Shown: positions 10,874 to 44,034 of the stretch, piece after piece
Numbering within the stretch: position 1 is the first letter of the stretch
Layout: each line of letters starts with the position of its first letter
From: a candidate division WOR-3 bacterium
Lineage (GTDB): Bacteria; Hydrothermota; 32-111
Assembly: GCA_037481815.1 (NCBI GenBank)
Contig: JBBFKX010000002.1
Location: 160,001-224,000 of the forward strand
Direction: 5' to 3'
DNA length: 64,000 nt
Notes under the pieces: model-generated
What the model was told of the DNA's origin: nothing
Database searches by the model: none
Seen by the model: only the letters and a program-made list of their open reading frames with translations
Made by a program: the position numbers and the translations under genes

Positions 10874-11950
10874 TTACTTCCCCTGTTTTTTTAACTCTTC
10901 ATATTTCTTGTATTCTTCTTTTGCTTTGTCGTTCATTTTCATTCTCGAATAGCAGTCGGCTTTTATCAGATAAAGATCGCTTATCTCAATTCCACTTTTG
11001 GAGATATATTCATCGATAATTTTTATAGCATCAGCATAATTTTGATTTTTGTAATATGCGAATCCCAAGTTCAACATCGATTCAAAATCATCCTCTTTAA
11101 CCTTCAAAGCGTTCTCAAAGTTAACAACTGCTTCTTTGTAGTTCTTTTTTTCATCAAGATAGATTTTCCCAAGTTTGAAAGAAACATCATTTTTGTATGT
11201 CGAGAGTTTGGATTTCATGGTTGAATCTGAAGATTCATAAATTTTGTTGAAACTGTTAAAATTCTTTATTGCCTCATCAAAATTTTTCTTTGAATATGCT
11301 ATTTCTCCAAGCCAGTATATGATCTGTGGATTTTCAGCATCTATATCTTTTGCTTTATCCAGATACTTCTTTGCTTCATCGAACTTTTCGATTCCAATAT
11401 AATATTTTGCAACATTGAAAAAGAGTGAAAGATTTTTTGGGTTCTTTGAAACAGATTTTTCTATAGTTTTTGTCATGTTCGTTTCATCACCAGTTTCAGC
11501 GTAAAGTAGTACAAGATAATCATAGTTTATAGAAGTATCTTTAACTTCCTCCGCTTTTAAAAGATATTTTTCATACTTTGATTTATTCTCTTTACTATCC
11601 TTATTTCTCAAGAAACCCGTTCCCGCATTGAAGAGTACTGGCCAGTAAAATTCAACATTCTCTTTCATCTCTTTTAAAACTTGTCCTGTAGTATCCTTTT
11701 CAAGTGCGATAATAAAATACTCTGATGCTTTATCAAACTCACTCTTTGAACCGTATGCCTTACCCATCCAAAGATACGCCTGTGGGTTGTTCGGTTCAAG
11801 TTTTATCGCTTCGTTGAACTGAACTATCGCTTTATCAAAATCGTTCTGTTGCATATATATTATACCTGATGACATATATTGATTGTTACATCCAACCATA
11901 AGTATAACTACCATTGCAACGATTAACAACAAATTAAAAAACCTGTACAT
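10874..11950 (-). CDS. TPR-repeat lipoprotein
   Basis: Signal peptide with lipobox LMVG-C; multiple TPR helix pairs. Confidence 0.8.
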   Translation of the reverse strand: MYRFFNLLLIVAMVVILMVGCNNQYMSSGIIYMQQNDFDKAIVQFNEAIKLEPNNPQAYLWMGKAYGSKSEFDKASEYFIIALEKDTTGQVLKEMKENVEFYWPVLFNAGTGFLRNKDSKENKSKYEKYLLKAEEVKDTSINYDYLVLLYAETGDETNMTKTIEKSVSKNPKNLSLFFNVAKYYIGIEKFDEAKKYLDKAKDIDAENPQIIYWLGEIAYSKKNFDEAIKNFNSFNKIYESSDSTMKSKLSTYKNDVSFKLGKIYLDEKKNYKEAVVNFENALKVKEDDFESMLNLGFAYYKNQNYADAIKIIDEYISKSGIEISDLYLIKADCYSRMKMNDKAKEEYKKYEELKKQGK

Positions 11951-12058: not shown

Positions 12059-12529
12059 TTACCGAAACAGGTTATCAATTATGTTGTCAACTTGATTTTT
12101 GAAATCTCTGTCAAAAGTTATTTTTTCATCCTCCTCTTCCTTCATAAGTTTAACTATATTCTCACTTAATTTTTTCATCATCGTTTGAACAACTCCTATT
12201 ATGGTATCTTTTGAAAAAAGAGAAACTATAATTATCTCATCGTTTACTGCAAGATAAAAAAAGGAAAATTTTTTTCCTTCCTGAAAGAGTGTAAAAAAAT
12301 AATCCTCTTTAACAAGTTTTGCGATACTTTTTGTTGCATTGAAAATTCCAGCACATAAGGCACCTAACGATTGAGTGTAATAGTTATCCTTTTTCATACC
12401 CATCTGAAAAAGCACCTGACCTGCACTATTTATAATAAGAACATTCAGGACCTTTGTATCCTGAATGAATGTCTTCAAAAACCGTTCAACATCTTTGACG
12501 GTTGGCTCATCAAGAACAAGTTTTTTCAT
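12059..12529 (-). CDS. mglB: Roadblock/LC7 protein, MglB homologue (regulator of MglA-type small GTPases)
   Basis: Aligns by eye over its full length with Myxococcus MglB as I recall it: VLIINSAGQVL, SLGALCAGIFNATKSIAKLVKE, FQEG, IGVVQ, and the C-terminal helix IIDNLFR. Confidence 0.75.
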   Translation of the reverse strand: MKKLVLDEPTVKDVERFLKTFIQDTKVLNVLIINSAGQVLFQMGMKKDNYYTQSLGALCAGIFNATKSIAKLVKEDYFFTLFQEGKKFSFFYLAVNDEIIIVSLFSKDTIIGVVQTMMKKLSENIVKLMKEEEDEKITFDRDFKNQVDNIIDNLFR

Positions 12530-12535
12530 AAAATT

Positions 12536-12880
12536 TTATATATTCCCCTGAAGTTGTGCTGCGATATTTTTTATTTGTATTATCAAAGCCCCAATGTTCA
12601 CATTCTTTTCAGCAAGAGCAAACAGTATAAACTTTTCTTTTGAAATGAAAAGTACTTCACCTTTTTCAGTGTATATCGTTGAAAATATTGGAAGGGAGTC
12701 GGTACTCTTTCCCAAACTTTTTTCCATCTCACTGTTTATCTTTGCAACCATCGCTCCAAGCAGTTCCGCCATTTCACTTTCATAGAAAATTTTATCAACG
12801 ATGAGTCCATCTTTTGTAAGAACAGCAACACCTTTAACTCCAGTTATCTCCATTATCTTCTCAATTTTCTCTTTTATCAT
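12536..12880 (-). CDS. Roadblock/LC7 domain protein (MglC-like)
   Basis: 114 aa, ITGVKGVAVLTKDGLIV...LLGAM...NIGALIIQIK roadblock pattern. Confidence 0.8.
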   Translation of the reverse strand: MIKEKIEKIMEITGVKGVAVLTKDGLIVDKIFYESEMAELLGAMVAKINSEMEKSLGKSTDSLPIFSTIYTEKGEVLFISKEKFILFALAEKNVNIGALIIQIKNIAAQLQGNI

Positions 12881-13593
12881 TGTTCAAGCACCTGTTTTAT
12901 ATTTTTTAACAACTGTTTCGCTTTTATAAGTATAAGACCTATCTTTACAACCTCTTCAGTGAAAATCCCCAGTATATATCCATTACCTTTAAAAAGATAT
13001 ATTCTGACTTTTCCAATTTCGATAAAGATCCTGTCTATCAGACCAAGATCGGTTTTACTTATAGAATCCTCTGAAACAGAAAAAATCGTCGAAAAAAGTG
13101 CAGAGGTGATTTCAGGGTCAAGGTTTTCCAGTATCTTTGCTCTTATAACAAGGCCTGATTCTTCAATTATGATACTCCCCAAAACTCCATTTATAGAGTT
13201 TATCTCTTCAAGCGATCTGTCAAGTAAACTTTCCGCCTCATTTGCGGTTATAACATTGTCCTTTTCTATCTTTTGCAAATCTTCTTTTTTTATCTCAGAG
13301 TTTTTTGAAATCCCACCCTCTTCGACTCTCACAGGTTGTATTAAAGATCTTACCGAAGGATCATCGGGAAATTCATTCAAAAGTTGATTCAAAACTTCTG
13401 TGGCAGATGGATCGTTCAATTCCTTTAAAGATCTATAAAGCAGAATTTTTGCATCCTTTATATCGGGAAATTCTGAAAGAATAAGTTTACAGTAGTTTAT
13501 AGTTTCGTTGAACGCTTTGTTCTTATAAAGATCCTCAGCGATCATTATAAGTAGTGAAATACTATCCCGATCAACTTTCATTCCTTCATTCAA
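12877..13593 (-). CDS. TPR + roadblock/LC7 fusion protein
   Basis: N-terminal TPR-like helices; C-terminal INGVLGSIIIEESGLVI...SALFSTIF...KIGLILIK roadblock domain. Confidence 0.8.
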   Translation of the reverse strand: MNEGMKVDRDSISLLIMIAEDLYKNKAFNETINYCKLILSEFPDIKDAKILLYRSLKELNDPSATEVLNQLLNEFPDDPSVRSLIQPVRVEEGGISKNSEIKKEDLQKIEKDNVITANEAESLLDRSLEEINSINGVLGSIIIEESGLVIRAKILENLDPEITSALFSTIFSVSEDSISKTDLGLIDRIFIEIGKVRIYLFKGNGYILGIFTEEVVKIGLILIKAKQLLKNIKQVLEQ

Positions 13594-14695
13594 ATTTACC
13601 TCCTAAAAGTTCATCAAAGATTTTTTGACACTCTTTAAGAGATTCTACAAGTTTTTCAACCTTACTCATCTGATCCGGTGTTTGGAGATTATCATAAAGA
13701 GAAATCAGTTCATCTATACTCTTCTTTACATCTCCCCTTTTAAAGTAAGCAAAAGAATTATACTTTTTTATAAAAGGATCATCGATTCCCTCGTTTTTTG
13801 CTATCAGAGTGAACTCGTTTATTTTATCAAACTGATTAGTTGCAAAGAATGAATAAATAAGCATTCTGTAAGCATCGAGATTTTTTGGATCCTTTTTAAC
13901 ATAATTTTTCAACTCGTTTATAGCTTTATCGAACAATCCATCATTGAAATAATGTTTTGCAACATCAAAACTACTTTCCACATCACCTTTTTGAGCGCCT
14001 TCGATAATAACTATACCAAGAGTTATCATTCCATATATCAATTTTGCTATTTCAAACTCATCACCATATTTTTCGGCGATATCTTTAATCGTGTTTTTAC
14101 CATTTATCATCGAAAAAATTTCCCACTCTTTTGGTTTAAGATCCAAAAGGTCCATTTTGTCTGGATTGTCAGAGATTTTTGGAATCACCGATGAGTTTGG
14201 AATCTTTGCGGATAACCTTGACCATTCATCTATTCTTCTTGAGCCCTCCATTATCAAAGATTCGGTTTTGATTTTGAATTTGAACAGGTTGTCGAGAATG
14301 AAATTACCTTCCTCAAATTTGAAATATCCTTCTCTCCATTCAAAAAGTTTGTATATGGTATCTTCGATTCTGAGTTGTAAAAATTTTCTGAACTCGTTTT
14401 CAGTCATAATGTTCATCTTTATTATCTCTTTTGCGATTTCAACATCATCGTTTTGAATTTTGTTCATTATCCTCTGTTCATAAAATTCTTTGGTTATTTT
14501 CCCAGCTTTTATCAAAAGCAAAGGCAAAGTTATCCCTTCCATACTAACATACACAACATTCCCATTTTCAAAATAAACGTTCGCTTTTTCTTCTTTATTT
14601 GAATCTATTTTTAATATTCCACTCTTCTGATTGAAAGATAGTATCTGAAACAGATCTATGAGATTCAGTTCACTGATTGGTCCTTCAATAGCCAC
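13586..14695 (-). CDS. DUF4388 (PATAN-like) domain protein with C-terminal TPR
   Basis: EGPISELNLIDLFQILSFNQKSGILKI, VYFENGNVV, LFEWREGYFKF, LIMEGSRRIDEW. Start GTG 14695 after AGGAG. Confidence 0.85.
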   Translation of the reverse strand: MAIEGPISELNLIDLFQILSFNQKSGILKIDSNKEEKANVYFENGNVVYVSMEGITLPLLLIKAGKITKEFYEQRIMNKIQNDDVEIAKEIIKMNIMTENEFRKFLQLRIEDTIYKLFEWREGYFKFEEGNFILDNLFKFKIKTESLIMEGSRRIDEWSRLSAKIPNSSVIPKISDNPDKMDLLDLKPKEWEIFSMINGKNTIKDIAEKYGDEFEIAKLIYGMITLGIVIIEGAQKGDVESSFDVAKHYFNDGLFDKAINELKNYVKKDPKNLDAYRMLIYSFFATNQFDKINEFTLIAKNEGIDDPFIKKYNSFAYFKRGDVKKSIDELISLYDNLQTPDQMSKVEKLVESLKECQKIFDELLGGKFE

Positions 14696-14703
14696 ATCCA
14701 CTC

Positions 14704-17412
14704 CTATTCAAAAATTGATATCCAGTTTCTTGCTGCTTCTATCGCTTTTGCGCTCTTCTGTGCAAATTCTGATTCAGGTGAATTCTTTACAACAAAATTC
14801 CACCTTTCCATAGCTTCCTTAATATATCCTTCCTTTGCTATTATCTTTGCAAAATTGAAATTCGCTTCAGGATTTGCGGGATCTATTTTTAGAGCGTTTT
14901 GATAAGCATCCTTTGCAACATCAAAATTTTCGATCTCCTGACAGACCGAACCTATTCTTAAAAATGCTCTGAGGTTGTTTGGATCAATCTGAACAATTCT
15001 TGTATAGATCTGAATAGATTTTTCAAAATCCTCGACTAATTCATAGATCGTTGCAAGTTCCCACAAATAACCAAGATTCTCTACATCTTTACTTATCAAC
15101 GATTCAAGAATTTTGATCGATTCATCGTACATTTTCATACTTCTTAAAACTATCGCTTTTTTGTAAAGGATATCTAGATTCTCTGGATCCTTATTCAGGA
15201 TTCTTTCGTATATTTCGAGTGCATCCCTATCTCTTCTCTGACTGACATATATTTCAGAGAGATTCGTTAGAGTTTCAATATTTTCAGGATCCTTTAAAAG
15301 TATCTCACCGATAATTTTTATCGCCTCTTCAAGGTTTCCATTTTTCCAGAGTAACATCGAATATAGATTCAAAACATCTATTTTATTTCTATCCTTTTCA
15401 ATTATCTTTGAAAGATATTCTATCGGTTCTGAATAGATCCCTTTGTTATAGAGTAGTTTGGAGAGTTTTAAAACCACTTTTTCGTTAAGAGGAGAGAGCG
15501 AAACTATTTTTCGATAATACTCTTCTGCTTCTCCATAGATCTGTTTTATATTGTAAACATCAGCGATTATTTCAAACATTTCCACATCGCACTCATCTTT
15601 TCTTACAACTTCAAAAGCACTCTGTGAAGCAAGATCATATTCACCCTTTTCAAAATATTCTTTTGCTTTTTTTCTCTTCTCCTCAAGTTGATCGACTTCC
15701 TTTAATTTAAGATCCTCTTTTTCAAAAGTATCCTCTGTTTCCTCTTCAAAAACACCTGTAAAAATATCTGAACTCTTCTCTTCTCCGATTGTGAAACCTT
15801 CTAGTTGTTCTGATGATGTAACCTGAACATCCTTTGACAGACTACCACTTATCAAAACATCCACTTTATCTGCGTAATAGTCAAGTCCAAGTTTATATCT
15901 TGTCTCAACATAATAGGGATTAAGTTTTAATGCTTCTTTCGTATATTTGAGTGCATCCTCATACCTTCCAACTTTTGTTAAGGTGAAAGCAAGGTTGTAG
16001 TATGCCTCAGCGAAATTTTCATCATACTGGATCGCTTTTTCAAAAACTTTTATCGCATCCTCAAATTTTCCTTCCTCTCTATAGATTATTCCAAGATAAT
16101 TGTATGTTAAAGGATAATCACCTTTTATCTCAAGAACTTTATCGATATATTTTTTCGCCTCTATAAAATTTTTATTTTCGATAAAGATTATCGATAGATT
16201 CAAAAGAGCATCAACATAATCATCCCTTATCTGTAAAGATTTGTTAAACATTTTTAATGCTTCATCCGTCTTATTTTTATGAAGCATTGCGATTCCAAGG
16301 TTATTGTATGCCATCACATATGATGGATCCATCTTTATAGATTTATTATAACAATCTATCGCATTTTCAAGTTCACCTTTTCTGTGAAAAGCGATACCCA
16401 TATCGTTGTACGCTTTTGCTGCAAACGATTCATCTTTAAGTGCAAGTTTGTATTCCTCTATCGCTTTATCGTTTTCTCCAAGAAGAAGATAGATCTCACC
16501 GATCTGAATGTGAATCAGCGCTCGATCCGGCTCAACAGATTCAGCCTTCTTAAACTCTTTTAGCGCTTCATTGAAAAGCCCTTTGTTCCGAAAACCAATT
16601 CCAAGTGTAAAGTATGTTAAAAAACTGTTCGGTTGAATCGAAACATTCGATTCTTCCTGAACAAAACTCTGATACATCCCCTGCTGATAAAAATCTATTC
16701 CAAGGTTTGCCTGTGTTTTTCCGTAAGCGGGATTCAACTTAATCGCTTTTTTTGTTTCCTTAATCGCGTCATCAAAAAGCCCTTTCTCTCCATAAACAAA
16801 GCCCAAAAGAAAATGTGCTTCAGCAAGGTTGGGATCGAGTTCAAGAGCTTTTTGGAATTCTTTTATAGCAGAATCAAGTATTCCCTTGTTATAGTAAACC
16901 TCACCAAGCATCGAGTGTATTTGAGCTGAATCGGGCTGTGTTTTTAAAGCTTTTCGATACTCTTCGATCGAATCATCATACATACCTAAAGATTTATATA
17001 TCTTCGCAAGGTTCAACCTCGCATCAACAAATGATGGGTTACTCTTTAAAATCTTCTTATACTCAGCGATAGCATCAAGCGATTTTCCCATGTTGTTCAA
17101 AGCTTCTGCAAGTTTAAACCTTGTGTTCAAATCTTCGGGATTCTTTTCAAGAACTTCTCTGTACTCTTTTATCTTTTCATCATACATCCCTGTTTCTTTG
17201 TAGATGAGTTCGAGATTCTTTTTCGCCAGGGTAAATTTCGGATCTATCGCAAGTGCTTTTTCAAGTTCTTCAATCGCTTCATCATAAAGACCTTTGTTGT
17301 AATACACAACAGCAAGATTGTTGTGTGCACCAGCATCCTTTGGATCTATCCTCTGGGCGAACGACTTTAAAACTCTCTTTTCTGCTTCAGATATTTGAAC
17401 CTGTTTTTTCAT
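14704..17412 (-). CDS. Large cytoplasmic multi-TPR scaffold protein (902 aa)
   Basis: Roughly 20 TPR units (e.g. AHNNLAVVYYNKG, AYNNLGIAML), no signal peptide, acidic central linker. Confidence 0.9.
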   Translation of the reverse strand: MKKQVQISEAEKRVLKSFAQRIDPKDAGAHNNLAVVYYNKGLYDEAIEELEKALAIDPKFTLAKKNLELIYKETGMYDEKIKEYREVLEKNPEDLNTRFKLAEALNNMGKSLDAIAEYKKILKSNPSFVDARLNLAKIYKSLGMYDDSIEEYRKALKTQPDSAQIHSMLGEVYYNKGILDSAIKEFQKALELDPNLAEAHFLLGFVYGEKGLFDDAIKETKKAIKLNPAYGKTQANLGIDFYQQGMYQSFVQEESNVSIQPNSFLTYFTLGIGFRNKGLFNEALKEFKKAESVEPDRALIHIQIGEIYLLLGENDKAIEEYKLALKDESFAAKAYNDMGIAFHRKGELENAIDCYNKSIKMDPSYVMAYNNLGIAMLHKNKTDEALKMFNKSLQIRDDYVDALLNLSIIFIENKNFIEAKKYIDKVLEIKGDYPLTYNYLGIIYREEGKFEDAIKVFEKAIQYDENFAEAYYNLAFTLTKVGRYEDALKYTKEALKLNPYYVETRYKLGLDYYADKVDVLISGSLSKDVQVTSSEQLEGFTIGEEKSSDIFTGVFEEETEDTFEKEDLKLKEVDQLEEKRKKAKEYFEKGEYDLASQSAFEVVRKDECDVEMFEIIADVYNIKQIYGEAEEYYRKIVSLSPLNEKVVLKLSKLLYNKGIYSEPIEYLSKIIEKDRNKIDVLNLYSMLLWKNGNLEEAIKIIGEILLKDPENIETLTNLSEIYVSQRRDRDALEIYERILNKDPENLDILYKKAIVLRSMKMYDESIKILESLISKDVENLGYLWELATIYELVEDFEKSIQIYTRIVQIDPNNLRAFLRIGSVCQEIENFDVAKDAYQNALKIDPANPEANFNFAKIIAKEGYIKEAMERWNFVVKNSPESEFAQKSAKAIEAARNWISIFE

Positions 17413-17417
17413 TCAAC

Positions 17418-18035
17418 CTACCTGTTTAAAAAATCGAGAAGTTTCTTTAAAGATATTGGATCAGGCAAAAGTATTAGATACCCTTTTAACGGATGTGGAT
17501 CATCCTCAAAAGTGAACTCTGTTTCAACACAGAAAACAACATCCTTGTTCGCACTGAAATCGATGTATGCTGAAGTTACTACAGCTGATCCTATATCAAT
17601 CACAAGATTTGGAACCGATGGTAAAATCAACATGTTCAAAAAATCACTCATCGCTGTAAGATATGAACTTATAACTATGTTTGCAACTTCTTTGATCGCT
17701 GATTGTTCTATCTCACTTAAAATCGTTGTCGTTCCAACAGGTTTTCCCATAACCATATCGACAAGAAGCATCGATTCATCTCTTGGAAATATCAAAAGTG
17801 TTCTACCTGTTAAATCTCCAAGAAATTTCACAAGAACACCTGTTACGATCTCGTCCTGGTTATTGATTATCCTGTATATCTCTTCTGAAGATATTATGTG
17901 AACTTTTGGAACCGAGACCATTACTCTTTTGTTCACAAGTTGTGAAAGAACGGTCGCAGCATGTCCTCCACCAATGTTGGAGATCTCTTTGATTCCATCC
18001 AGATGAAAATCTTTTAAGTTGTTAAAATCTATCAT
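17418..18035 (-). CDS. cheC: CheC-family CheY-P phosphatase (DifG-like)
   Basis: Two active-site motifs, DGIKEISNIGGGHAATVLS and SAIKEVANI. Confidence 0.93.
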   Translation of the reverse strand: MIDFNNLKDFHLDGIKEISNIGGGHAATVLSQLVNKRVMVSVPKVHIISSEEIYRIINNQDEIVTGVLVKFLGDLTGRTLLIFPRDESMLLVDMVMGKPVGTTTILSEIEQSAIKEVANIVISSYLTAMSDFLNMLILPSVPNLVIDIGSAVVTSAYIDFSANKDVVFCVETEFTFEDDPHPLKGYLILLPDPISLKKLLDFLNR

Positions 18036-18038
18036 AAA

Positions 18039-19919
18039 TTACCCCTCTTTAGCCATCGAAACAACACCTGGAACATCAACTATGAAAGATGGCATTCCGT
18101 TGTTTAAAATTGACACACCTGCAAGCCCATGAATACCTGAAAGTATTCCCTTAAGTGGCTTGACAACTACCTCTGATTGTTCTAGGAAATTATCCACAAG
18201 TATCCCGTATAAAGAATCCTCCACTTCAACAAGAACTATGGAATATTTGTCCCTATCTTCAACTTTTTCACATTTAAAAATTTTTGATAACCTTATAAGC
18301 GGTATTATTTGATCTCTCAATACGAAGACCTCTTTTTGCATAACCGTAAATATTTCGTTTTTGTTTATGTCTATCGTCTCCACGATGTGAGTTAAAGGTA
18401 TTATATAAACTTCACCACTCACCTCGACTATCAAAGTTTTTATTATGGCGAGTGTCAAAGGAAGTTTTAAAGTGAAAACTGTTCCTTTATCTTTCTGGGA
18501 CGAAATTTCAAGTGTTCCACCTATCTGTTTTAAAACATTGTAGACAGCACCAACACCCACACCTCTTCCTGAAATATCGTTAACCTCTTCTTTGGTGGAG
18601 AAACCTTCATTCATTATCAACGAATAGATATCGTTTTCATTTAGATGTTGTAATTTTTCTTCATCTATCAAATTTAATGACAATGCTTTTTCTATAATTT
18701 TATTTTTATCAAGTCCTTTACCATCATCTGAAACTGTTATCAAAACTCCATTTTTAACCCTTTTCGCTTCAAGTATTATCGTTCCGGTTTCATCTTTTTT
18801 ATTTTTTATCCTTTCCTGTTGAGTTTCTATTCCATGATCCACAGCATTCTTCAGAAGATGAAGCAATGGATCCGCAAGGGAATTCAGAATCGCTCTATCA
18901 AGTTCAATATCTCTTCCCTTTATTATAAAATTTACTTTCTTTTTCAACCTGTTTGAAAGATCCCTGATATACCTTGGATACCTATCAAAAACCTGTCCAA
19001 CTGGAACCATCCTTATCTTCATTATTTCATCCTGAATATTTGAGATTATCTTTGAAGTTGAGTTCAGAGAATTTATCAATTCTTCATTCTGTAAAGAGTA
19101 TGCTATCTGTTGCAACCTCCCTCTGGCTATAACAAGTTCTGAAGCATAGTTCTGGAGATTGTCAAGGCGTTCGAGTGAAACCTTTATATCCTTTTTTTCT
19201 ACAACGATTTCCTGATCACTTTTTGCTTCTTCTTTCACAAGGAAAGCATCTTTTATTTCAGGTATACCTTTAATCTCATCTATAACCTTTTCAATTTCAG
19301 TTGTATCTTTTATGTAAAGGGTGATCTCATCTTTAAAATTTTCCTTCATTATCGAATCAAAGTCCGGATCACTTTTTATGAAAATATTTCTATCCTGAAG
19401 ATTTTTAATAACGACGAAAGCTCTCGCTGATTTTAAAACAACATCTTCAGAAAAAATTATTTTTATCGCTTTTTCTGATGATAGAGAAACTTTCTCTATA
19501 GGGATCTTTTTTGTTTTTACTTCCTCTATCTTTTTCGTTTCCTTAACGATCTCAGAACCTGTTTTTATAGATTCAATCACCTTTAAAAAACTTTTTATAA
19601 TATTTTCATCTACATCTTTTTTATGGACAAGGGATTGTATATAATCTGTCCCCTTTAAGAGTAGGTCTATAAGTTCAGTGCTTACCTGTAATTTTTCATT
19701 TCGTATAAGATCCATAACATCTTCTATCGAATGGGAAATTTTTGTAATCGAAGAATAGCCCATTGAAGCTGCCATACCCTTTATCGTATGCATACCCCTA
19801 AAAATCGAGTTTATTGCCTCTATATCGTTCATATCCTTTTCAAGTTTCAAAATGGAATCAGAAACCTGCTCAAGGTACTCTTCAGCTTCACTTATGAACA
19901 ATTCTTCATAATTTGTCAT
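18039..19919 (-). CDS. cheA: Chemotaxis histidine kinase CheA (Hpt-P2-dimerisation-HATPase-CheW)
   Basis: FRGMHTIKGMA, P2-like LKSARAFVV, HLLKNAVDHGIE, DDGKG, GFST...SGRGVG, LPLTLAII. Confidence 0.97.
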   Translation of the reverse strand: MTNYEELFISEAEEYLEQVSDSILKLEKDMNDIEAINSIFRGMHTIKGMAASMGYSSITKISHSIEDVMDLIRNEKLQVSTELIDLLLKGTDYIQSLVHKKDVDENIIKSFLKVIESIKTGSEIVKETKKIEEVKTKKIPIEKVSLSSEKAIKIIFSEDVVLKSARAFVVIKNLQDRNIFIKSDPDFDSIMKENFKDEITLYIKDTTEIEKVIDEIKGIPEIKDAFLVKEEAKSDQEIVVEKKDIKVSLERLDNLQNYASELVIARGRLQQIAYSLQNEELINSLNSTSKIISNIQDEIMKIRMVPVGQVFDRYPRYIRDLSNRLKKKVNFIIKGRDIELDRAILNSLADPLLHLLKNAVDHGIETQQERIKNKKDETGTIILEAKRVKNGVLITVSDDGKGLDKNKIIEKALSLNLIDEEKLQHLNENDIYSLIMNEGFSTKEEVNDISGRGVGVGAVYNVLKQIGGTLEISSQKDKGTVFTLKLPLTLAIIKTLIVEVSGEVYIIPLTHIVETIDINKNEIFTVMQKEVFVLRDQIIPLIRLSKIFKCEKVEDRDKYSIVLVEVEDSLYGILVDNFLEQSEVVVKPLKGILSGIHGLAGVSILNNGMPSFIVDVPGVVSMAKEG

Positions 19920-19922
19920 ACA

Positions 19923-20291
19923 CTATTTCAAATTTAAAACTCTGTTGACAGATTCAAGAACCCTTGATGGTTGAAAAGGTTTAACGACAAAATCTTTGGC
20001 TCCCGCCTGAATCGCCTCTACTACAAGCGATTGTTGTCCCATGGCGGAAACCATCAATATCTTTGCGTTTGGAAACTCTTTTATAATTTCCCTGACAGCA
20101 TCTATACCTGACATATCAGGCATTATGATATCCATAGTTACAAGATCCGGCTGCAATTCTCTGTACATCTGCACAGCCTGAGATCCTGTCCCCGCCTCCC
20201 CACAAATTTCAAAACCTTCTTTTTTCAGAATATCTGCGATCATTCTTCTCATAAAAATTGCGTCATCAACTATAAGCACCCTTGTAGCCAT
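19923..20291 (-). CDS. cheY: Single-domain response regulator CheY (DifD / F1-class-like)
   Basis: VDDAIFMR, VTMDIIMP, SAMGQ, KPF. Confidence 0.95.
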   Translation of the reverse strand: MATRVLIVDDAIFMRRMIADILKKEGFEICGEAGTGSQAVQMYRELQPDLVTMDIIMPDMSGIDAVREIIKEFPNAKILMVSAMGQQSLVVEAIQAGAKDFVVKPFQPSRVLESVNRVLNLK

Positions 20292-20302
20292 ATTTTTTCC
20301 TC

Positions 20303-20701
20303 CTAATTTTTGTTGATAATATTTTTCAAATTTAATATTATAATCTCTTTACCATCTTTTTCAACAAAACCTTTTATATATTCACCTTCACTCTCTTCAT
20401 CTTTTACCTTTGAAACGTTTATTATGCCTTCTATTTCATCTATTAGAAGGCCATACTTTTCTTTGTTTTTTTCACAGATGATTATATAATTTTCCTCAAC
20501 CTTTTTCATCATTTTCAGTTTTTTCTTCAACGAGATCAAAACAACAACATCTCCCCTTAAGTTTATTACACTTTCGATATAATCTTCAGCGTTTGGAATT
20601 CTAATACCTTTTATTCTCTCATAAATATCTATTATCTCGGATATCTTTATCCCATATATTTTACCTTCGATCTTAAACGTTATATACTGTTCATTTTCCA
20701 T
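20303..20701 (-). CDS. cheW: Chemotaxis coupling protein CheW
   Basis: YITFKI...YGI, IPNAEDYIESVINLRGDVVVLISL, GLLIDEI. Confidence 0.9.
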   Translation of the reverse strand: MENEQYITFKIEGKIYGIKISEIIDIYERIKGIRIPNAEDYIESVINLRGDVVVLISLKKKLKMMKKVEENYIIICEKNKEKYGLLIDEIEGIINVSKVKDEESEGEYIKGFVEKDGKEIIILNLKNIINKN

Positions 20702-20705
20702 TCTG

Positions 20706-23700
20706 TTAAATCTCCTTCCATGTGAATTCTATTGGAAGAACACTCAAAGGATGCGCATAGAAACCATGAACATCGTCATGTATCGCGATCTGCCGATAGT
20801 TGTGAGTTAAAAATACCCAGGGTGCATCATCGACAATTATTCTTTCAATATCCTGATACAATTTATTTCTTTCTTCAAAATTAGTTGTCATCCTTGCTTT
20901 TAAAATGAGATCGTCCACCTGTTTGTTCGAGTAAAAAGAGTTGTTTCCACCATCACCAAAACTTTCACTATGGAAAAGTGGATAAACGAAATTGTCAGGT
21001 TCACCTGTATCACCAGCCCAACCCATCATAAAAAGATCACATTTCCCGGAGTGCATCCTGTCAAGAAGTTCCACCCATTTCAAGGGAACTATTTTTATCC
21101 TGATACCTATTTCCTGCCACATACTCTGTAAGAGTTCCGCCCTCTTTATAACCCTTTCAGAATTTGAACATATCATTTCAAAACTGTGATTTATACCGTT
21201 AGGAAAACCGGCTTTTAACATCATCTCTTTTGCTTTTGATGGATTGTAAGGATAACCTTCAAGAGATTTGTTGTAACATGGAAGTGCTGGGGGAAATACA
21301 CCTTTTGAAATGATCCCGAGACCAAACATTGTTTCGTTGATGTACCTTGATTTATCGGTAGCATAGTTTATTGCTTTTCTTATCTCTTTTGTTAATGTGA
21401 TCTCATTTTTTCTTGACATGTTGAAACCAACATACTGAACATCAAGAGATGGTATCGTTAGAACTTTTATATCAACTCTGTTCTGTTTTTTTAATTTTTC
21501 AAGATCCTCAGCGTTTACAGAACAATAATCTATGTTTTTCGCCAGGAGTTCTTCAAACTCATCCTCTTCCCTTTTTATCTTTATTTCAACATTTTCAACA
21601 AAAGGTTCTCCTCCAAAATAATGTTTGTTGGATTCCATAAGAATCCTTTCATCATCAACATATTTTAAAATGAATGGTCCACAACCGATGCAGTTGTTTT
21701 TCATCTTTTCATCGGAAAATTTTACCATATCCTTTTTTATTACCGCAAGACATATCACAGCAAGATTTGATAGGAATGGAATATAAGGATATTCAAGAGT
21801 AAACTTTATCGTATGTTCATCGAGTATTTCAATTCCCTCAATATCACGGGCTCTTCTTTTTATGTAATTCTGGGCTCCCTTTATCATATTCACAAAAGGA
21901 GCGTTTGGAGTTAAAAGAACATTTTTTATGCTCTCTTTCACATCCTCTGCTGTTACAGGTGTTCCATCATGAAAGTAAGCGTTTTTTCTTAAAAAGAAAA
22001 CCCACTCCGTTGCATCAGAGTTGATATGCCAGTATTTTGCAAGTGCTGGGATAACACTTGTATCCTTTCCAAATCTCACAAGTCCAACATGGATCTGTTG
22101 TAAAACTGTATTACTCGTTGAATCACCAACGAGTGCTGGCTGCCAGTGAACGGGCAGGTTGTTCATTATGAATTTAAACCTATTCTTTTCAGGATCCCTT
22201 TTGATTATGAACTTCTCTGAAAATGTTTCCTGTATACCTGAAACCATCTTTAATGACTCTTCACTTTTCAAAATATCATTTTTAAAAATCCTGTTAAGTT
22301 CATCAGCCATCTGGTTTATTTTTTCAGATTTTGAAATTATGTTCATGTATAGTTTGACAATCTCATCCTTTAAAATTTCCTGCTGGGTTATGGTATCGTA
22401 AATCTCTTTCAAAAGATTTTTAAAATTCACTGCTGAGTCCTTTACATCCTTTACAACCTTGTTGCTCGTTTCTATTGAGAAAATAATCTTTTCCGCAGAA
22501 TCGAGTTCTTTATCAACAATGCTTAAAACATCGTGTAAAAGTTTTTCCATATTTTTTACTATATCTTTTATCTCAAGTGAGGCATCAGTTGCTTTTTTTA
22601 TGAGTTCTTTTGTCTGTGAAACTATAACAACAAGATTCTGTTGATATTTGCCTGATCTTGCTGCCTCGATCGAAGCATAGAGAGAAAGCAATTTTGTCTG
22701 TTCTGAAAGTTCTTTCAATTCTAAACTCGTTTCAAAAATTGATTTCAAATTTTTTGAAATTTCGTTGAAATCATCTTTAAGATTGACTATCATCTCAAGT
22801 GTTTTTTCGATATCATTTTTCACATTAACTACACTCGTTGAGAACTCGTTTACTGCACCAAGGAGAAGGTTAAGATTATCCTCTATCTCTCCAACATTTT
22901 TTAGCATCAACTGTTCACTTTCCTCTATTGATTCGATGGCACCGAAATAGTTTTTAACAACCTTTGATTGTTCATCGTTTCTTTCGATGAACTCGTTTAT
23001 AACTCCCATCGTTTGATCTATAATGTTTTTACTGTTTTCAAGGAAAAATTCTATCTTTTTGAAAATCTTTATCTCTGTTGCTATAGAATTATCTAATGAT
23101 TTCTTTTCATAAATAAGATCTGACAGAGGTTCAAGTTGTTGCATAAGATTCGATAGTCCAACCTTTACATCGGATTGTGTTTTAACCATTGTCATAAGTT
23201 TTTCGGTCGACTGTAAAGAAACATCAATTATATTTTGAACACTTTTGTTAAGGTCGTTGATCAGATTTTTATTTTTATCCTGTATGTTTATATATTCTTT
23301 CATCTTGTCCGACTTCAAAACAATATCAGAAAGGTTCATCTCAACATTTTTTAACCTGAAATTCAAAAGATCTATGTTTCTTTTTAATGCATCGATTCTG
23401 AACTTAATGTTATCGACAGATTCAATAACATTTTCTGTTTTCACTTTTATGTTCTGAATACTTTCAGGAATCCTTTTTGTTAGATTGAATGTTTTGTTCG
23501 CAAGAAGAAGCATCCTGTCAGCGATAACTTCAAAACCTCTTCCACTCTCTCCAGCATGATACGATTTTATCCCTGCGTTTCTTGCTGCCGATTCAGTCAT
23601 CTGTGCTATACCAATTATGATCTCGGTTATTTGACCTATGTGTTTTGAATACTCGTTAAATGGTTTTACAATATCGAGAATCTGGGATGAACCACTCGTA

Positions 23701-24044
23701 AAAATATTCAACTGGTTTATCACCTGATCAAACTCTTTGACACTATTTTTGATACTTTCCGTTGAGTTTTTTGAATAATCTATTAAAACATCCGCAGCTT
23801 CAGAAACTATCTGTATCGAAGCGTAAAGTTTGTTTCCTTTGTCTTCAATCTTTTCTATTTCATCAACCAATCCTTTTTCTTCAAATGAAATCGAAGAGAG
23901 TATAGAATGTGCGTTTCTGTTTATCTCAAGAAGTTCATCATCATCTATTTTTATAGTTTTCAAAGCATAGATCAGGGCTGTTGGATCAAATTCCTCTTCC
24001 TGTATTACTCCCTTTCTTTTAAAAAAATTGAAGAAAGACACCAT
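20706..24044 (-). CDS. Soluble chemoreceptor with two MCP signalling domains fused to a C-terminal family-5 (OppA/DppA-like) solute-binding domain
   Basis: Tip 1 is IAQMTESAARNAGIKSYHAGESGRGFEVIA; tip 2 is LSEQTKLLSLYASIEAARSG. The C-terminal ~490 aa contain PALAKYW, FFLRKNAYFHDGTPVTAEDV, IGCGPF, IRKAINYATD, YPYNPSKAK and DDAPWVFL. No TM helix or signal peptide. Confidence 0.88.
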   Translation of the reverse strand: MVSFFNFFKRKGVIQEEEFDPTALIYALKTIKIDDDELLEINRNAHSILSSISFEEKGLVDEIEKIEDKGNKLYASIQIVSEAADVLIDYSKNSTESIKNSVKEFDQVINQLNIFTSGSSQILDIVKPFNEYSKHIGQITEIIIGIAQMTESAARNAGIKSYHAGESGRGFEVIADRMLLLANKTFNLTKRIPESIQNIKVKTENVIESVDNIKFRIDALKRNIDLLNFRLKNVEMNLSDIVLKSDKMKEYINIQDKNKNLINDLNKSVQNIIDVSLQSTEKLMTMVKTQSDVKVGLSNLMQQLEPLSDLIYEKKSLDNSIATEIKIFKKIEFFLENSKNIIDQTMGVINEFIERNDEQSKVVKNYFGAIESIEESEQLMLKNVGEIEDNLNLLLGAVNEFSTSVVNVKNDIEKTLEMIVNLKDDFNEISKNLKSIFETSLELKELSEQTKLLSLYASIEAARSGKYQQNLVVIVSQTKELIKKATDASLEIKDIVKNMEKLLHDVLSIVDKELDSAEKIIFSIETSNKVVKDVKDSAVNFKNLLKEIYDTITQQEILKDEIVKLYMNIISKSEKINQMADELNRIFKNDILKSEESLKMVSGIQETFSEKFIIKRDPEKNRFKFIMNNLPVHWQPALVGDSTSNTVLQQIHVGLVRFGKDTSVIPALAKYWHINSDATEWVFFLRKNAYFHDGTPVTAEDVKESIKNVLLTPNAPFVNMIKGAQNYIKRRARDIEGIEILDEHTIKFTLEYPYIPFLSNLAVICLAVIKKDMVKFSDEKMKNNCIGCGPFILKYVDDERILMESNKHYFGGEPFVENVEIKIKREEDEFEELLAKNIDYCSVNAEDLEKLKKQNRVDIKVLTIPSLDVQYVGFNMSRKNEITLTKEIRKAINYATDKSRYINETMFGLGIISKGVFPPALPCYNKSLEGYPYNPSKAKEMMLKAGFPNGINHSFEMICSNSERVIKRAELLQSMWQEIGIRIKIVPLKWVELLDRMHSGKCDLFMMGWAGDTGEPDNFVYPLFHSESFGDGGNNSFYSNKQVDDLILKARMTTNFEERNKLYQDIERIIVDDAPWVFLTHNYRQIAIHDDVHGFYAHPLSVLPIEFTWKEI

Positions 24045-37437: not shown

Positions 37438-37465
37438 TTGACTTTTTTTGATATTGAATTATGAT
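37438..37465 (+). promoter_or_regulatory. Putative promoter of the diguanylate cyclase gene
   Basis: TTGACT-N16-TATGAT; the -10 overlaps the ORF-track ATG 37461, favouring ATG 37476 as the start. Confidence 0.45.
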
Positions 37466-37475
37466 TATTTTACAA

Positions 37476-38624
37476 ATGAAAGAAGATAAAGGGAATATTT
37501 TTTACACTGAATTCAACTATGATAAACTCTATTGGCTGATAAATATAAGAACATTACTTTTAATCTGTTTAACTATAATTTTTTCAATTTTATCAATATT
37601 TAAAATCAAAATAAATAACACATTTTCTCCTGAATATCTACTTTTTTGGCAGATGATAGCACTTGTGATCAATTTTTTACTCTATATTGATCTAAAATAT
37701 CTTCAAAACAATAAACACCTGATTATGAACGAGGAAAATTTTAAATATATTGGAATGATTCAAATCGATTTTGATATCCTTTATACGATAGTTACAATTT
37801 TTCTTTCAGGAGGAATAAAATCTCCACTTCTTTTTCTTTTCATTTATAACATAATCACTTCAAACTTTTTGATTCAGGATCGAAATACTTTCTTTTACAC
37901 CCTTATATTAATTGTGCTGATTTTCATCTCTGAATTCAGATTTAGATTCAAGGACACATTCCCATACATAGAGTATAAAACTTTGGAAAAGTTTGAAAAT
38001 ATGGTCTTGATCTCACTCATATTCTTTTTCCTCTTCTACCTTTCAAAATATGTATCGGAAAAACTGAAACAGAAACAGGAAGAGTTGAATAAACTATATC
38101 AGGAAACATACAAGTTATCAATAACTGATAGGTTGACAGGCCTTTATGATCAGACATATTTTAGAGTGAGTGCTTCTGACGCTATTGAGATCGCAAAAAT
38201 CAACAACAATAAACTTGCAATTGTAATGTTTGATATCGATAATTTTAAGGAGTTCAATGATACAAACGGACATCTTATGGGTTCACGCGCATTGGTTCAA
38301 ATAGCACAGATCATGAAAAAAACTTTTAGAAAAACTGACATCCTTGGTAAATATGGAGGAGACGAGTTTATAATACTCTTAAAAGATATAGATGAAAATT
38401 ATATAACATTTGTTCTTGAGAGATTCAAAAGTCAGATAGAAAATTTTAACTTTAATCCCGAAACATCAAGAGTTTCCCATTTGACTATTTCCATAGGTGT
38501 TTCGTTTTTTCCCAAAGATGGTGAAAACCTCGATACACTTATCGATAAAACTGATAAGGCATTATACACTGCAAAAAATTTAGGAAAAAATAATCTATTC
38601 ATTTTTGATGATAGTAAAAAGTAG
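37476..38624 (+). CDS. Membrane-bound diguanylate cyclase (GGDEF)
   Basis: About 5-6 TM helices, then TDRLTGLY, DIDNFKEFND..GH..G, RKTD I-site and KYGGDEF. Confidence 0.93.
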   Translation: MKEDKGNIFYTEFNYDKLYWLINIRTLLLICLTIIFSILSIFKIKINNTFSPEYLLFWQMIALVINFLLYIDLKYLQNNKHLIMNEENFKYIGMIQIDFDILYTIVTIFLSGGIKSPLLFLFIYNIITSNFLIQDRNTFFYTLILIVLIFISEFRFRFKDTFPYIEYKTLEKFENMVLISLIFFFLFYLSKYVSEKLKQKQEELNKLYQETYKLSITDRLTGLYDQTYFRVSASDAIEIAKINNNKLAIVMFDIDNFKEFNDTNGHLMGSRALVQIAQIMKKTFRKTDILGKYGGDEFIILLKDIDENYITFVLERFKSQIENFNFNPETSRVSHLTISIGVSFFPKDGENLDTLIDKTDKALYTAKNLGKNNLFIFDDSKK

Positions 38625-40085
38625 TTTTACAATATCAGGATCATAAATTTTTCCAACATTTTCGTTGAAAATTCCTTCAATATGTTTTTCAGTCAACTTA
38701 AAAATATCTTTAAAAACACAATATTCTCCAGCAACTCTAACTATTCTTGAACCAACTGGAATTTTTTTACCGACGAGTTTGTTAAAACCAGTTCCATCAT
38801 AGTTTTCGTAAAGAAATTTAATAATTTTTTGAGCATCTTCAAGCATCACAAGAGGTGCTATAATATCAGCACCTGATACGATCGCCTGTTTTATCTCTAA
38901 AGATTTTTCAGGGTCGAAGTATGTTGGTGCATTGAAGATCTCCTTTGGTTTACTCAAAAGTCCAAGGAGATGCAAAAGAGCCGAATACTGTATATCCCTT
39001 ATTTCATCTTCAGAAAGTTCCATCCTTTTTGCAATTTTTACAGAAAGTGCTGAAACTTTTTCACTGTGTTTTTTTAAACCAGGGAATATCCTATCCTCAA
39101 GATATAAAAAGGCGATCAAGGATTCAAGATAACTTCTTCTTGAATCCTCAAAAAATTTTGCAGATGCAAGAGAATTCGTGATCACGATCCTTGCGATTTC
39201 AAAAAGAACCATTTTTTCATCTTTAATTTTCAATGAATCTATTTCAAATATAAAAACTCCTATGATCAGTTTTCCTAAAAATATCGGCAAAGTAACCGTT
39301 GAGTTGTCCTTTATACCTTTAAGAGAGTACCCGATATTAATTTTGGAAGATTTGAAATATTCAATAAACTGGTTCCTGTTGATTTTGGTTCCAACTGGAA
39401 ACTCTTTTTCAAAATTTCTTTCCTTTTTAACAACGAAATCTCCACTTTTTTCATCAAAAAGAAGAAGAACCAAAGAGTGGGGATTAAAAATCGTATCAAG
39501 TTTTTCAAAAATGTTTAAAGCGTTAGATTCAAAAGATTTGATCACAGAGATCATTTCAGAAAAAGTTTTGAGTTCTTCAATGCTTTTTAAAAGTTCTTTT
39601 AGATAATTATCAAGTTTCTCTTTCTGTTCGGATACCAATTGGTTCGTGTTTAACAGTTCCTCATTCATTTTTTGAATGTCAGCACTCAATCTTTCTTTAT
39701 CAAGTAATAATTGCCTCTTCTCATAAGCGTTTCTGATAACAAGTAACATCGTATCTGCTGTGAATGGCTTTGAGACAAAATCGTAAGCACCACTCCTGAT
39801 GCATGTCATCGCAAGATTAATATCTATTGTTGCTGAGATAACGATTATAGGTGAAAAAGGATTTTCAATCGAAAAATTTGTTATGAAGTCAAAAACATCG
39901 GTTCCTGGCAACGACAGATCCACTATTATTAGAGAATATTGATTCAAAGATAACAGATTTTTAAATTGTACCCCATCGGTTGCAATATCCACATCAACAG
40001 CATCTTTCTTTTCATACTCGATGATCTTTTTTAAAAAATTGGCTACTGTGATTTCGCCATCAGCTACTAAAATTTTTTCTTTCAT
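38595..40085 (-). CDS. Response regulator: REC - coiled coil - GAF-like - degenerate HD-GYP
   Basis: REC with IIVDLSLPG and KPF. The C-terminal HSEKV...ALLHLLG...LYENYDGTGF...IPVGSRIV...YDP has the HD-GYP fold with altered metal ligands. Confidence 0.85.
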   Translation of the reverse strand: MKEKILVADGEITVANFLKKIIEYEKKDAVDVDIATDGVQFKNLLSLNQYSLIIVDLSLPGTDVFDFITNFSIENPFSPIIVISATIDINLAMTCIRSGAYDFVSKPFTADTMLLVIRNAYEKRQLLLDKERLSADIQKMNEELLNTNQLVSEQKEKLDNYLKELLKSIEELKTFSEMISVIKSFESNALNIFEKLDTIFNPHSLVLLLFDEKSGDFVVKKERNFEKEFPVGTKINRNQFIEYFKSSKINIGYSLKGIKDNSTVTLPIFLGKLIIGVFIFEIDSLKIKDEKMVLFEIARIVITNSLASAKFFEDSRRSYLESLIAFLYLEDRIFPGLKKHSEKVSALSVKIAKRMELSEDEIRDIQYSALLHLLGLLSKPKEIFNAPTYFDPEKSLEIKQAIVSGADIIAPLVMLEDAQKIIKFLYENYDGTGFNKLVGKKIPVGSRIVRVAGEYCVFKDIFKLTEKHIEGIFNENVGKIYDPDIVKLLFTIIKNE

Positions 40086-40086
40086 T

Positions 40087-43000: not shown

Positions 43001-44034
43001 TTCAAATTGTTTACGATTTCTGTTTTCTTTTGAACAAAGTAATACTCTTCTTCTATCATCTTTTTCTCTGTAATGTCCTCTATCAGAATAACAACCCCAA
43101 CACATCTTCCATTCTCTATCAAAGGATAACCATAAAGGTTTTGAACAAGTTCTTTTTTTAACCTTGTGGAATACCTCTTAACTCCAAGCATTCTTCTCGT
43201 CTTTTTTGTCTCTATTATCTCTGCAAGTATTTTATCGAGTTTCAATTCAAGTAGATCAGGGAAAAGATCGAAAATATTTTTTCCGATCATTTCAGAGTTG
43301 GTGAACTTATATTTTTCCGCTGTGAATTTGTTGAACTTGATTATATTCCCTTCTCTGTCCAGAACAATTATCCCCTGTGCAATAGCATCAAAGACAAGAT
43401 TCTGAATCCTTTTTAAACCTTCTATCTCTTTTGTCCATATCTCCTTTTCCTTGAGATCATAAATTATTACTATGGAATAATCTTCCCACGGAAAAATACT
43501 AACCTTTACAGAGCTGGCATTCCCATTTATATCGTACATTTCTATAAAAAGTTCCTGTTTGGTCTTCTTTTTCAGCGATACTATCGTTTTTTCAAGATGG
43601 TCTGGTAAAACATATTCACTAAAATATGTTGCATTACCTAAATATGTATCTCCATATTTTATCTGAAACGATTGGTTTGAAAGTATAACCTTTAAATCTT
43701 TATCAAGAAAACATACAGAAGAATCTATACTATCAAGGAGTTCTGCAAGGAGGTATATGTCCATTATGGATGAAGTGTTCACTTCACTTTTTAAAAATAT
43801 GATGATCTTTTCATAGTTTGGAAAATTAAAATAAATATATTCACCAGAAGAATTATATGAGAAAATATCCTTTTTAAATTTTACCGATGATAAAAATTTT
43901 TTTATATCAAAATCTTTTTCAACGAATTTCTCTTTCCGGTAATCGGATACCACTCTTCCATCATAGGTTGACAAAATGAATGAAATATTTTTTAATTTTA
44001 AAAAATCAAGAAAAGATGTTAAAACATTTCTCAT
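40087..44034 (-). CDS. Cytoplasmic multi-PAS/GAF sensor histidine kinase (NtrB-like)
   Basis: PAS and GAF segments, AHEIKNPL H-box, [28 protein letters not shown]; no TM helices. Confidence 0.93.

Follow-up and report, generated by a model that had tools for sequence, protein, structure and literature searches.

A 64,000-nucleotide stretch of a candidate division WOR-3 genome (assembly GCA_037481815.1, contig JBBFKX010000002.1, positions 160,001 to 224,000; hereafter the window) contains a ten-gene operon in which a chemosensory core is followed by a module of tetratricopeptide repeat (TPR), PATAN (DUF4388) and roadblock proteins. Judged by gene order in relatives, this operon appears to be the first half of a conserved chemosensory and small-GTPase system of about 19 genes. 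In the source assembly (1.58 Mb, 20 contigs, 95% complete), the second half, which includes an MglA-type GTPase, lies on another contig (C3). On balance, though not with confidence, we think that phosphorylated CheY (CheY-P) signals to the module and MglA, and through them to type IV pilus motors, in flagellum-less bacteria of the FCB group. The first-pass annotation had taken the ten genes for the whole system, of which they make up only about half.

A chemosensory core and a TPR/PATAN/roadblock module in one operon

The ten open reading frames (ORFs) all lie on the minus strand, from 24044 to 12059, with intergenic distances of 4, 11, 3, 3, 5, 2, −8, −4 and 6 nt. The initial description of ten co-oriented genes no more than 11 nt apart was accurate to the coordinate, and Pfam agrees with every assignment. 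The first five genes encode a chemoreceptor of 1112 aa (20706..24044; MCPsignal at residues 91-274 in two stretches, SBP_bac_5 at 664-1029), a CheW coupling protein of 132 aa (20303..20701; CheW, E 3e-25), the single-domain response regulator CheY of 122 aa (19923..20291; Response_reg), the histidine kinase CheA of 626 aa with domains P1-P5 (18039..19919; Hpt, P2, H-kinase_dim, HATPase_c and CheW), and a CheC-type CheY-P phosphatase of 205 aa (17418..18035; CheC). The module follows with an all-TPR protein of 902 aa, the signature scaffold of the system (14704..17412; Pfam TPR families), and a 371-aa PATAN protein with a weak C-terminal TPR region (13586..14701; DUF4388, E 8e-27). Three roadblock proteins complete it: a TPR and roadblock fusion of 238 aa (12877..13593; TPR_19 at 23-85, Robl_LC7 at 127-209), a small, MglC-sized protein of 114 aa whose gene overlaps the preceding one by 4 nt (12536..12880; Robl_LC7), and an MglB-type protein of 156 aa with a C-terminal helix (12059..12529; Robl_LC7 and a match to solved MglB). 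A terminator scan gave 10 sites against 5.4 expected, none of them at the gene junctions within the operon, which is weak evidence.

The two halves of the operon stay together across phyla

A search with the PATAN/TPR protein as query, run on one genome for each species, yielded 23 loci (L001-L023) from TA06, 'Acetofilamentum sp.', Candidatus Edwardsbacteria and many Gemmatimonadota/Longimicrobiales metagenome-assembled genomes. Their gene content was read by tblastn and phmmer with the window proteins, and two of the loci (L010 and L014) were run against Pfam. The large TPR protein adjoins the PATAN protein in every locus (23/23), and CheC lies directly upstream of the large TPR protein in 22 of the 23, the remaining locus (L014) starting at a contig end. 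CheA is present in 21 and CheY in 20 of the 23 loci, with all misses at contig ends.

In the loci closest to the window, L001-L004, the ten genes of its operon recur. In the other 19 loci, which include those of Edwardsbacteria and Gemmatimonadota, the cluster continues on the same strand through the TPR/roadblock, small roadblock and MglB-like proteins to an MglA-like GTPase. MglA is downstream in 18 of these 19 loci; the exception, L009, ends right after PATAN at a contig end. This comparative genomics strongly supports the earlier proposal of a phosphorelay wired through scaffold proteins to an MglA-type switch in a non-myxobacterial lineage. A second PATAN protein (PATAN2) and CheR come downstream in 15 of the 19 loci, with CheD and/or CheB also detected in 14 of those 15; in the fifteenth, L020, the contig ends inside CheR. 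One cluster, that of L010, ends with CheW.

The same association is seen in an even sample of 201 genomes from the bacterium's own phylum. Carriers of the large TPR protein, defined by an orthologue at E ≤ 1e-50, number 81; a CheA dimerisation domain is found in 78 genomes, and 72 have both. Within these 72, the large TPR gene is within 4 kb of CheA on one contig in 64, and 6 of the 8 non-adjacent genomes have it a few kb from a contig end.

It could be supposed that a che operon and an unrelated TPR/PATAN/roadblock operon merely happen to adjoin each other, as CheA occurs without the large TPR protein in six of the sampled genomes, and one genome (G153) has the module but no che genes with it. 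The spacing argues otherwise, with gaps of 2-6 nt or overlaps, and so does the order of the genes, which 22-23 of the 23 loci share although they span phylum-level lineages. Adjacency in 64/72 genomes, with most exceptions near a contig end, points the same way, and in 15/19 Edwardsbacteria/Gemmatimonadota-type loci, those that reach far enough, che genes are found both before and after the module. We therefore regard chance neighbourhood as very improbable. Gene order indicates a linkage far beyond chance, and the claim that the che and TPR/roadblock halves are linked in related genomes is borne out.

The che-less module lies in a complete genome of the same phylum (L044, G153:C1:735000-754999), where a 791-aa TPR protein, a PATAN-like protein and a small roadblock protein are encoded beside three pilT paralogues. 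Six sampled genomes of the same genus have the TPR orthologue and no match to the CheA dimerisation domain.

A second cluster with MglA and the methylation enzymes

The second cluster of this genome (cluster B, on contig C3) has the order efp, PilT-family ATPase, MglA, 552-aa P-loop ATPase, PATAN2/TPR, CheR, CheD, CheB, TPR and CheW, and its junctions from pilT onward all overlap, by 4-26 nt. The PilT protein scores 462 bits against TIGR01420, above the cut-off. The pilT stop overlaps the MglA start by 8 nt, and pilT and mglA are adjacent, with an overlap, in the relative G001 too. The first-pass annotation had reported no cheR, cheB, cheD or flagellar gene. This is correct for the operon and the window but misleading for the genome, in which CheR, CheD and CheB are encoded on contig C3.

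The PATAN2/TPR protein (L024:8684-10288) matches NF053729, a model of an MshE-related cyclic di-GMP (c-di-GMP) motif, with 49 bits against a cut-off of 38. The pattern RxGxxLL occurs in 16/16 PATAN2 orthologues, twice in 14 of them. A strict 24-residue MshEN regular expression matched nothing, and the assignment rests on the NCBIfam hit together with the looser RxGxxLL pattern. Because PATAN2 carries this MshEN-like motif, c-di-GMP may gate the output of the system. The first PATAN protein keeps the c-di-GMP motif in the four Gemmatimonadota copies that we examined.

Between MglA and PATAN2, the genome of the window encodes the 552-aa P-loop ATPase (L024:10285-11943), for which we found only a weak Hda-like match (E 1.9e-12). 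A P-loop ATPase with a DnaA domain is found between MglA and PATAN2 in both L010 and L014. The L010 protein (L010:13605-15365) is a tandem DnaA-type AAA+ protein, scoring 407 bits against TIGR00362 over model positions 103-337 and matching solved DnaA with E 9e-57; it has the tandem AAA+ module without the DNA-binding domain of DnaA.

The che-associated MglA and its putative MglB partner

The GTPase of cluster B (L024:11940-12560) matches solved MglA with E 1.7e-67. It has the features of MglA group 1, with Thr in G3 (TxxGQ; TVPGQ at residue 83) and the intrinsic arginine region (DRTLFFD at residue 57), and both motifs are also carried by the other GTPase of this genome. Replacement of Asp by Thr in G3 is presented as an MglA hallmark in passages of PMC3000849. 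The other GTPase belongs to a canonical mglB-mglA pair at a third locus, at about 44.5 kb on contig C2 and outside the window.

To place these copies, we built an IQ-TREE phylogeny of 18 MglA sequences: the two copies of this genome, all ten copies of five relatives, and six more in-operon copies. The genes of L008, L010, L014 and L016 are the in-operon rows of G002-G005 in this tree, and the in-operon copies of L012, L013, L017, L018, L020, L021, L022 and L023 are absent from it. The sequences split into two clades at 100/96 support, one made up of the mglB-paired canonical copies and the other uniting all che-embedded copies with the pilT-linked ones of this genome and G001. All 12 sequences of the che clade have Arg in the P-loop (G[PA]GR[SC]GKT), and the five canonical sequences with a visible P-loop have Leu (G[PT]GLGGKT); the Arg is thus a marker of the che clade. 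Because of the two-clade split, the che-associated MglA is an old, dedicated paralogue, separate from the canonical pair that the same genomes retain.

By its position, the last gene of the window's operon would encode the MglB partner of the che-associated MglA. It ends the operon here, and its positional orthologues in Edwardsbacteria and Gemmatimonadota directly precede MglA. Residues 14-155 of the protein (12059-12529), including the C-terminal ...DNLF, align with the solved MglB of M. xanthus (E 3.2e-13), and the protein thus has both the full-length similarity and the C-terminal helix expected of the MglB fold. Its score against the curated equivalog model NF052242, 52.8 bits, misses the cut-off of 200. 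From these comparisons we take it to be a divergent MglB paralogue.

The canonical mglB-mglA pair is convergent with the gene for a 556-aa HAMP-containing methyl-accepting chemotaxis protein (MCP), 1 nt from its end (L025:2832-5591, about 42.8-45.6 kb). The same genome thus holds a second MCP/Mgl adjacency.

The other module proteins

An AlphaFold2 (AF2) model of the PATAN/TPR protein (predicted local distance difference test, pLDDT, 88) has an N-terminal alpha/beta domain with a helical insertion, followed by TPR helices. A Foldseek search of this model against the PDB and a PDB sequence search matched TPR proteins only, leaving the PATAN part without a solved counterpart in these searches. 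The protein does not have the PatA-type architecture, in which PATAN is fused to a receiver; DUF4388 is followed by TPR, and no Response_reg domain was found. Database names for its 88 relatives are limited to 'DUF4388 domain-containing', 'TPR repeat protein' or 'hypothetical'.

In relatives, the place of the TPR/roadblock fusion is taken by orthologues of 231-350 aa. The small roadblock protein likewise has positional orthologues there; among solved chains, it comes closest to Robl_LC7 domain proteins (E 7e-5). Complex prediction of CheY with the PATAN/TPR, TPR/roadblock and small roadblock proteins returned a score of 0.00, by which the predictor gave no answer either way.

Two more DUF4388 proteins are encoded outside the window (L026:1981-3042 and L027:2747-3424), one of them adjoining a 688-aa TPR protein, which brings the total of PATAN proteins in this 1.58-Mb genome to four.

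The chemosensory core looks Thermotoga- and archaeal-like

The best solved match of CheY is T. maritima CheY (E 3.8e-49, near-gapless over 118 residues), with archaeal CheY proteins next. Residues D9, D54, S82, F101 and K104 are invariant in 19 aligned orthologues, and identity between phyla is 66-76%, compared to about 28% for CheA. We considered whether this conservation is special to the present system and rejected the idea, because T. maritima CheY aligns just as closely.

CheA, the sole one found in the genome (one PF02895 match), has HTIKG at residue 44 and matches solved T. maritima CheA with E 3e-98. Its best NCBIfam model is haloarchaeal (CheA_Halo), at 440 bits versus 343 for the enterobacterial model and below the curated cut-off. 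CheC has both [D/S]xxxExxN-x22-P phosphatase motifs, at residues 13 and 112, and its best NCBIfam model is CheC_Thtogales, with 177 bits, below the cut-off of 250.

The first-pass annotation had called this a Dif-like pathway, a label that we drop. Since CheY, CheC and CheA are nearest to Thermotoga and archaeal proteins, and CheR, CheB and CheD belong to the system, the core looks Thermotoga/archaeal-like, that is F1-like, with methylation. The F1 chemosensory class is reportedly defined as Wuichet and Zhulin proposed in 2010. Of the features that we associate with it, the domains P1, P2, P3, P4 and P5 are all present in CheA, and CheC, CheD, CheR and CheB are all present in the system, the first in the window and the other three in cluster B. 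Control of a flagellum or archaellum is the feature that is not seen: FlhA, flagellin and FliG were not found in this genome, and none of the 81 phylum carriers has FlhA.

The receptor contains two MCP-signalling-like hairpins in one chain, with tips near residues 150-178 and 452-480, and its residues 133-330 and 401-583 align to the same region of another MCP. The C-terminal domain is DppA-like (NCBIfam DppA model, 225 bits, below the cut-off) and lacks a signal peptide. No membrane segment is predicted, and no hydrophobic 19-mer reaches the threshold. This form of the receptor, with 1117-1128 aa, is kept in L001-L004. The receptor may be a cytoplasmic single-chain pseudo-dimer that senses peptides.

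A receptor without a membrane segment could plausibly form a soluble array in need of positioning. The module proteins and MglA might then act upstream, placing or assembling the cytoplasmic array at a pole in a ParC/ParP-like manner, with CheY signalling elsewhere; passages of PMC4316618 describe MglA-type GTPases as polar landmarks in Myxococcus. This reading seems quite unlikely to us. The neighbourhood of the che genes encodes nothing else that could plausibly be a target of CheY, and no flagellar genes were detected. Moreover, the Gemmatimonadota clusters have the whole module but no receptor gene, and in G153 the module exists without che genes.

Flagella, type IV pili and the output of the pathway

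FlhA, flagellin and FliG gave no match in the genome; because the assembly is 95% complete, the absence of flagella is likely but not proven. Four of five relatives with the system are also without FlhA. Three of these four have a single match to the CheA dimerisation domain; the fourth, G005, has no such Pfam match, and tblastn finds CheA in its locus L016. In the flagellated relative, G002 (6.2 Mb), an additional CheA is encoded some 23 kb from flhA. In the phylum sample, full-length FlhA is found in 6/201 genomes, none of them among the 81 carriers. We also sampled Gemmatimonadota, the phylum of G002 (n = 151). The large TPR orthologue (E ≤ 1e-60), counted alone and irrespective of adjacency to CheA, is present in 95 genomes, and FlhA in 42. 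Both occur in 22 genomes, the large TPR protein without FlhA in 73, FlhA only in 20, and neither in 36. Two of the 95 carriers are unpublished genomes (G302 and G262), without which the count is 93/149.

The close match of CheY to T. maritima CheY and the presence of CheC and CheD are what one would expect of an ordinary flagellar F1 operon with CheY binding FliM, an outcome that the first-pass annotation had named as fatal to its proposal. This explanation is hardly credible for a 95%-complete genome without FlhA, FliG or flagellin, in a phylum where none of the 81 sampled carriers has FlhA, and the flagellated G002 has a separate CheA near flhA. Because the host has no detectable flagellar genes, this condition does not refute the proposal.

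The genome inventory suggested at the outset has been run, and it shows pilus genes and mglA together with the lack of flagellar matches described above. Four PilB-like and two PilT-like ATPases, PilC and a secretin are encoded, and genes for a PilS-like kinase, PilC, PilT and two PilB proteins lie 8-18 kb beyond the window end. In Synechocystis, PATAN is an output domain that binds PilB1 and PilC, according to parts of a preprint (bioRxiv 10.1101/2021.06.11.447907), and MglA and the TPR protein SgmX stimulate pili in M. xanthus, according to passages of PMC7519303. We infer a link of the system to type IV pili, with pilus polarity as its output.

The mechanism that we have in mind would run as follows. 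A receptor array would control CheA, which would phosphorylate CheY; CheC would reset CheY, and CheR, CheB and CheD would adapt the receptors. On the basis of the gene content, CheY-P would act on the roadblock/TPR/PATAN assembly, and this assembly would determine either the nucleotide state of the dedicated MglA or its location at a pole. The MglB homologue would serve as GTPase-activating protein (GAP), and the remaining two roadblock proteins would act as co-regulators. In concert with the TPR and PATAN proteins, MglA-GTP would then bias the PilB, PilT and PilC motors at one pole, resulting in steered twitching, and c-di-GMP may gate this output through PATAN2.

The same wiring could serve an output other than type IV pili, such as another polar process, a Dif-like surface polysaccharide, gliding, secretion, or cell-cycle or division placement through the DnaA-like ATPase. 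The conservation of a tandem DnaA AAA+ protein between MglA and PATAN2 would fit such an output, as would the Por_Secre_tail sorting-domain protein inserted in the Edwardsbacteria cluster, and the co-occurrence with pili does not discriminate. However, pilT and the embedded mglA are translationally coupled here and in G001, the cyanobacterial PATAN binds PilB and PilC (as described in part of bioRxiv 10.1101/2021.06.11.447907), and three pilT genes lie beside the che-less module in G153. We consider a non-pilus output rather unlikely, if the most serious of the alternatives.

Several observations weigh against the view that CheY-P acts through the module and MglA on pilus motors. PilT is so common in the phylum (166/201 genomes, 78/81 carriers) that its co-occurrence with the system is uninformative, and MglA, found in 129/201 genomes, extends well beyond the 81 carriers. 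The Gemmatimonadota census concerns a single gene, the large TPR orthologue, as noted. The operon is split in the lineage of the window, and its two halves therefore need not be co-regulated. The conserved DnaA-like ATPase may point to another output. The first PATAN protein of the window's lineage has lost the RxG c-di-GMP motif, and the large TPR protein does not score as an SgmX orthologue (NF052243, 65 bits against a cut-off of 1800). Finally, a motif search of all system proteins for a FliM-like CheY-docking peptide gave nothing convincing.

With these points taken into account, we still lean towards CheY-P acting on pilus motors by way of the module and MglA. A more far-reaching version can be offered only tentatively. 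It would be a self-contained pathway of receptor, kinase and Ras-like GTPase in which an F1 core came to serve the type IV pilus through a third rewiring, with its own MglA, a three-roadblock complex resembling a GAP or guanine nucleotide exchange factor (GEF), two PATAN/TPR adaptors and c-di-GMP gating at PATAN2; such a pathway would go back to a common ancestor of several FCB phyla, and most of the Gemmatimonadota sampled would have it. To our knowledge, F1-type che cores are otherwise known only with flagella and archaella.

Comparison with known systems

That chemosensory pathways can control pili and a polarity GTPase is already known; what stands out here is that the genetic wiring is unusually clear and the distribution wide. 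The closest functional parallel is Frz of M. xanthus, a cytoplasmic-receptor pathway whose response regulators reset the MglA/MglB/MglC polarity switch (passages of PMC4316618, PMC9481161 and PMC10329633), in an organism where MglA activates type IV pili via the large TPR protein SgmX (passages of PMC7519303). Like Frz with MglA, MglB, RomR and MglC, the present system combines a chemosensory pathway with MglA, roadblock proteins and a large TPR protein. Unlike there, the genes form one cluster, and a dedicated MglA/MglB paralogue pair exists beside the canonical pair. The large TPR protein is not SgmX, and PATAN/TPR proteins and a DnaA-like ATPase are integral. The present CheA also differs in having no fused receiver, and CheC and CheD are present.

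The cyanobacterial Tax/Pix systems likewise couple a che-like pathway to PATAN, which there binds PilB1/PilC and sets pilus polarity (parts of bioRxiv 10.1101/2021.06.11.447907). In contrast, the fusion partner of PATAN is here TPR and not a receiver, CheY is encoded as a protein of its own, the system also includes roadblock proteins and MglA, and the core is Thermotoga/archaeal-like. With the F1 systems of Thermotoga, Bacillus and archaea the present one shares CheA with P1-P5, CheW, CheY, CheC, CheD, CheR and CheB; it differs in that neither a flagellum or archaellum nor a FliM-like peptide was found, and the output genes are those for MglA, roadblock, PATAN and TPR proteins. The likeness to Dif of M. 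xanthus lies in the order receptor-CheW-CheY-CheA-CheC (the dif order being that given in the first-pass annotation). Dif is characterized by having no methylation enzymes, whereas CheR, CheB and CheD are part of the present system, in cluster B here and in a single operon in relatives, and the nearest named relatives of CheY, CheA and CheC are from Thermotoga and archaea.

PATAN genes near mglA/mglB are already in print, in Wuichet and Sogaard-Andersen 2015 (PMC4316618, in passages) and in Makarova et al. 2006, as cited there. Those passages of PMC4316618 mention no che genes, three-roadblock set, large TPR protein or separate MglA paralogue. A full-text literature search returned no description of a che operon enclosing MglA, MglB, extra roadblock proteins and PATAN/TPR proteins; table S2 of PMC4316618 may list such neighbourhoods.

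In Myxococcus, the route from chemosensory signals to the MglA switch is still debated, and the parts are scattered over the genome. Here a single operon gathers the parts: CheY is joined by a 900-aa TPR protein, two PATAN/TPR proteins, three roadblock proteins, an MglA paralogue and an AAA+ protein, which offer a compact set of candidates for the connections that are still missing. Many Gemmatimonadota, which are a major soil phylum, carry the system (95/151), as do many WOR-3/TA06-type bacteria (81/201), and for this reason it may be what mainly controls behaviour in numerous uncultured bacteria that have no flagellum. It would represent a bacterial F1-type che core with non-flagellar output, parallel to the archaeal CheF solution.

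Other features of the window

The operon lies in an ordinary chromosomal context, with dnaX-ybaB-recR upstream and, downstream, a TPR gene followed by rplM-rpsI-rpsB-tsf. This downstream TPR gene (10874..11950, minus strand; Pfam TPR) starts 108 nt past the operon end and is kept in L001 and L002 alone among the loci; its membership in the operon is doubtful. The gap before it contains a strong promoter-like sequence, TTGACA-16-TAAAAT, at 12017-11990, in a scan where such sites occur at chance level (56 found, 56.1 expected). The protein may be a lipoprotein: its residues 1-26 are hydrophobic and the segment ends in ...VGC. A weak similarity to PilW/Tgl-type TPR lipoproteins is below cut-offs (PilW, 73 bits versus 154).

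The rest of the window holds housekeeping genes and a few signalling genes. An 881-aa ORF between grpE and a cupin gene (57832-60477, minus strand) has no Pfam match at E ≤ 1e-8. The signalling genes at 37461-44034 form an island that encodes a GGDEF cyclase with a PilS-like six-helix membrane domain (37461-38624, plus strand), a receiver and HD-domain protein (38595-40085, minus strand) and a 1315-aa PAS/GAF histidine kinase (40087-44034, minus strand). This island is a possible source of c-di-GMP input.

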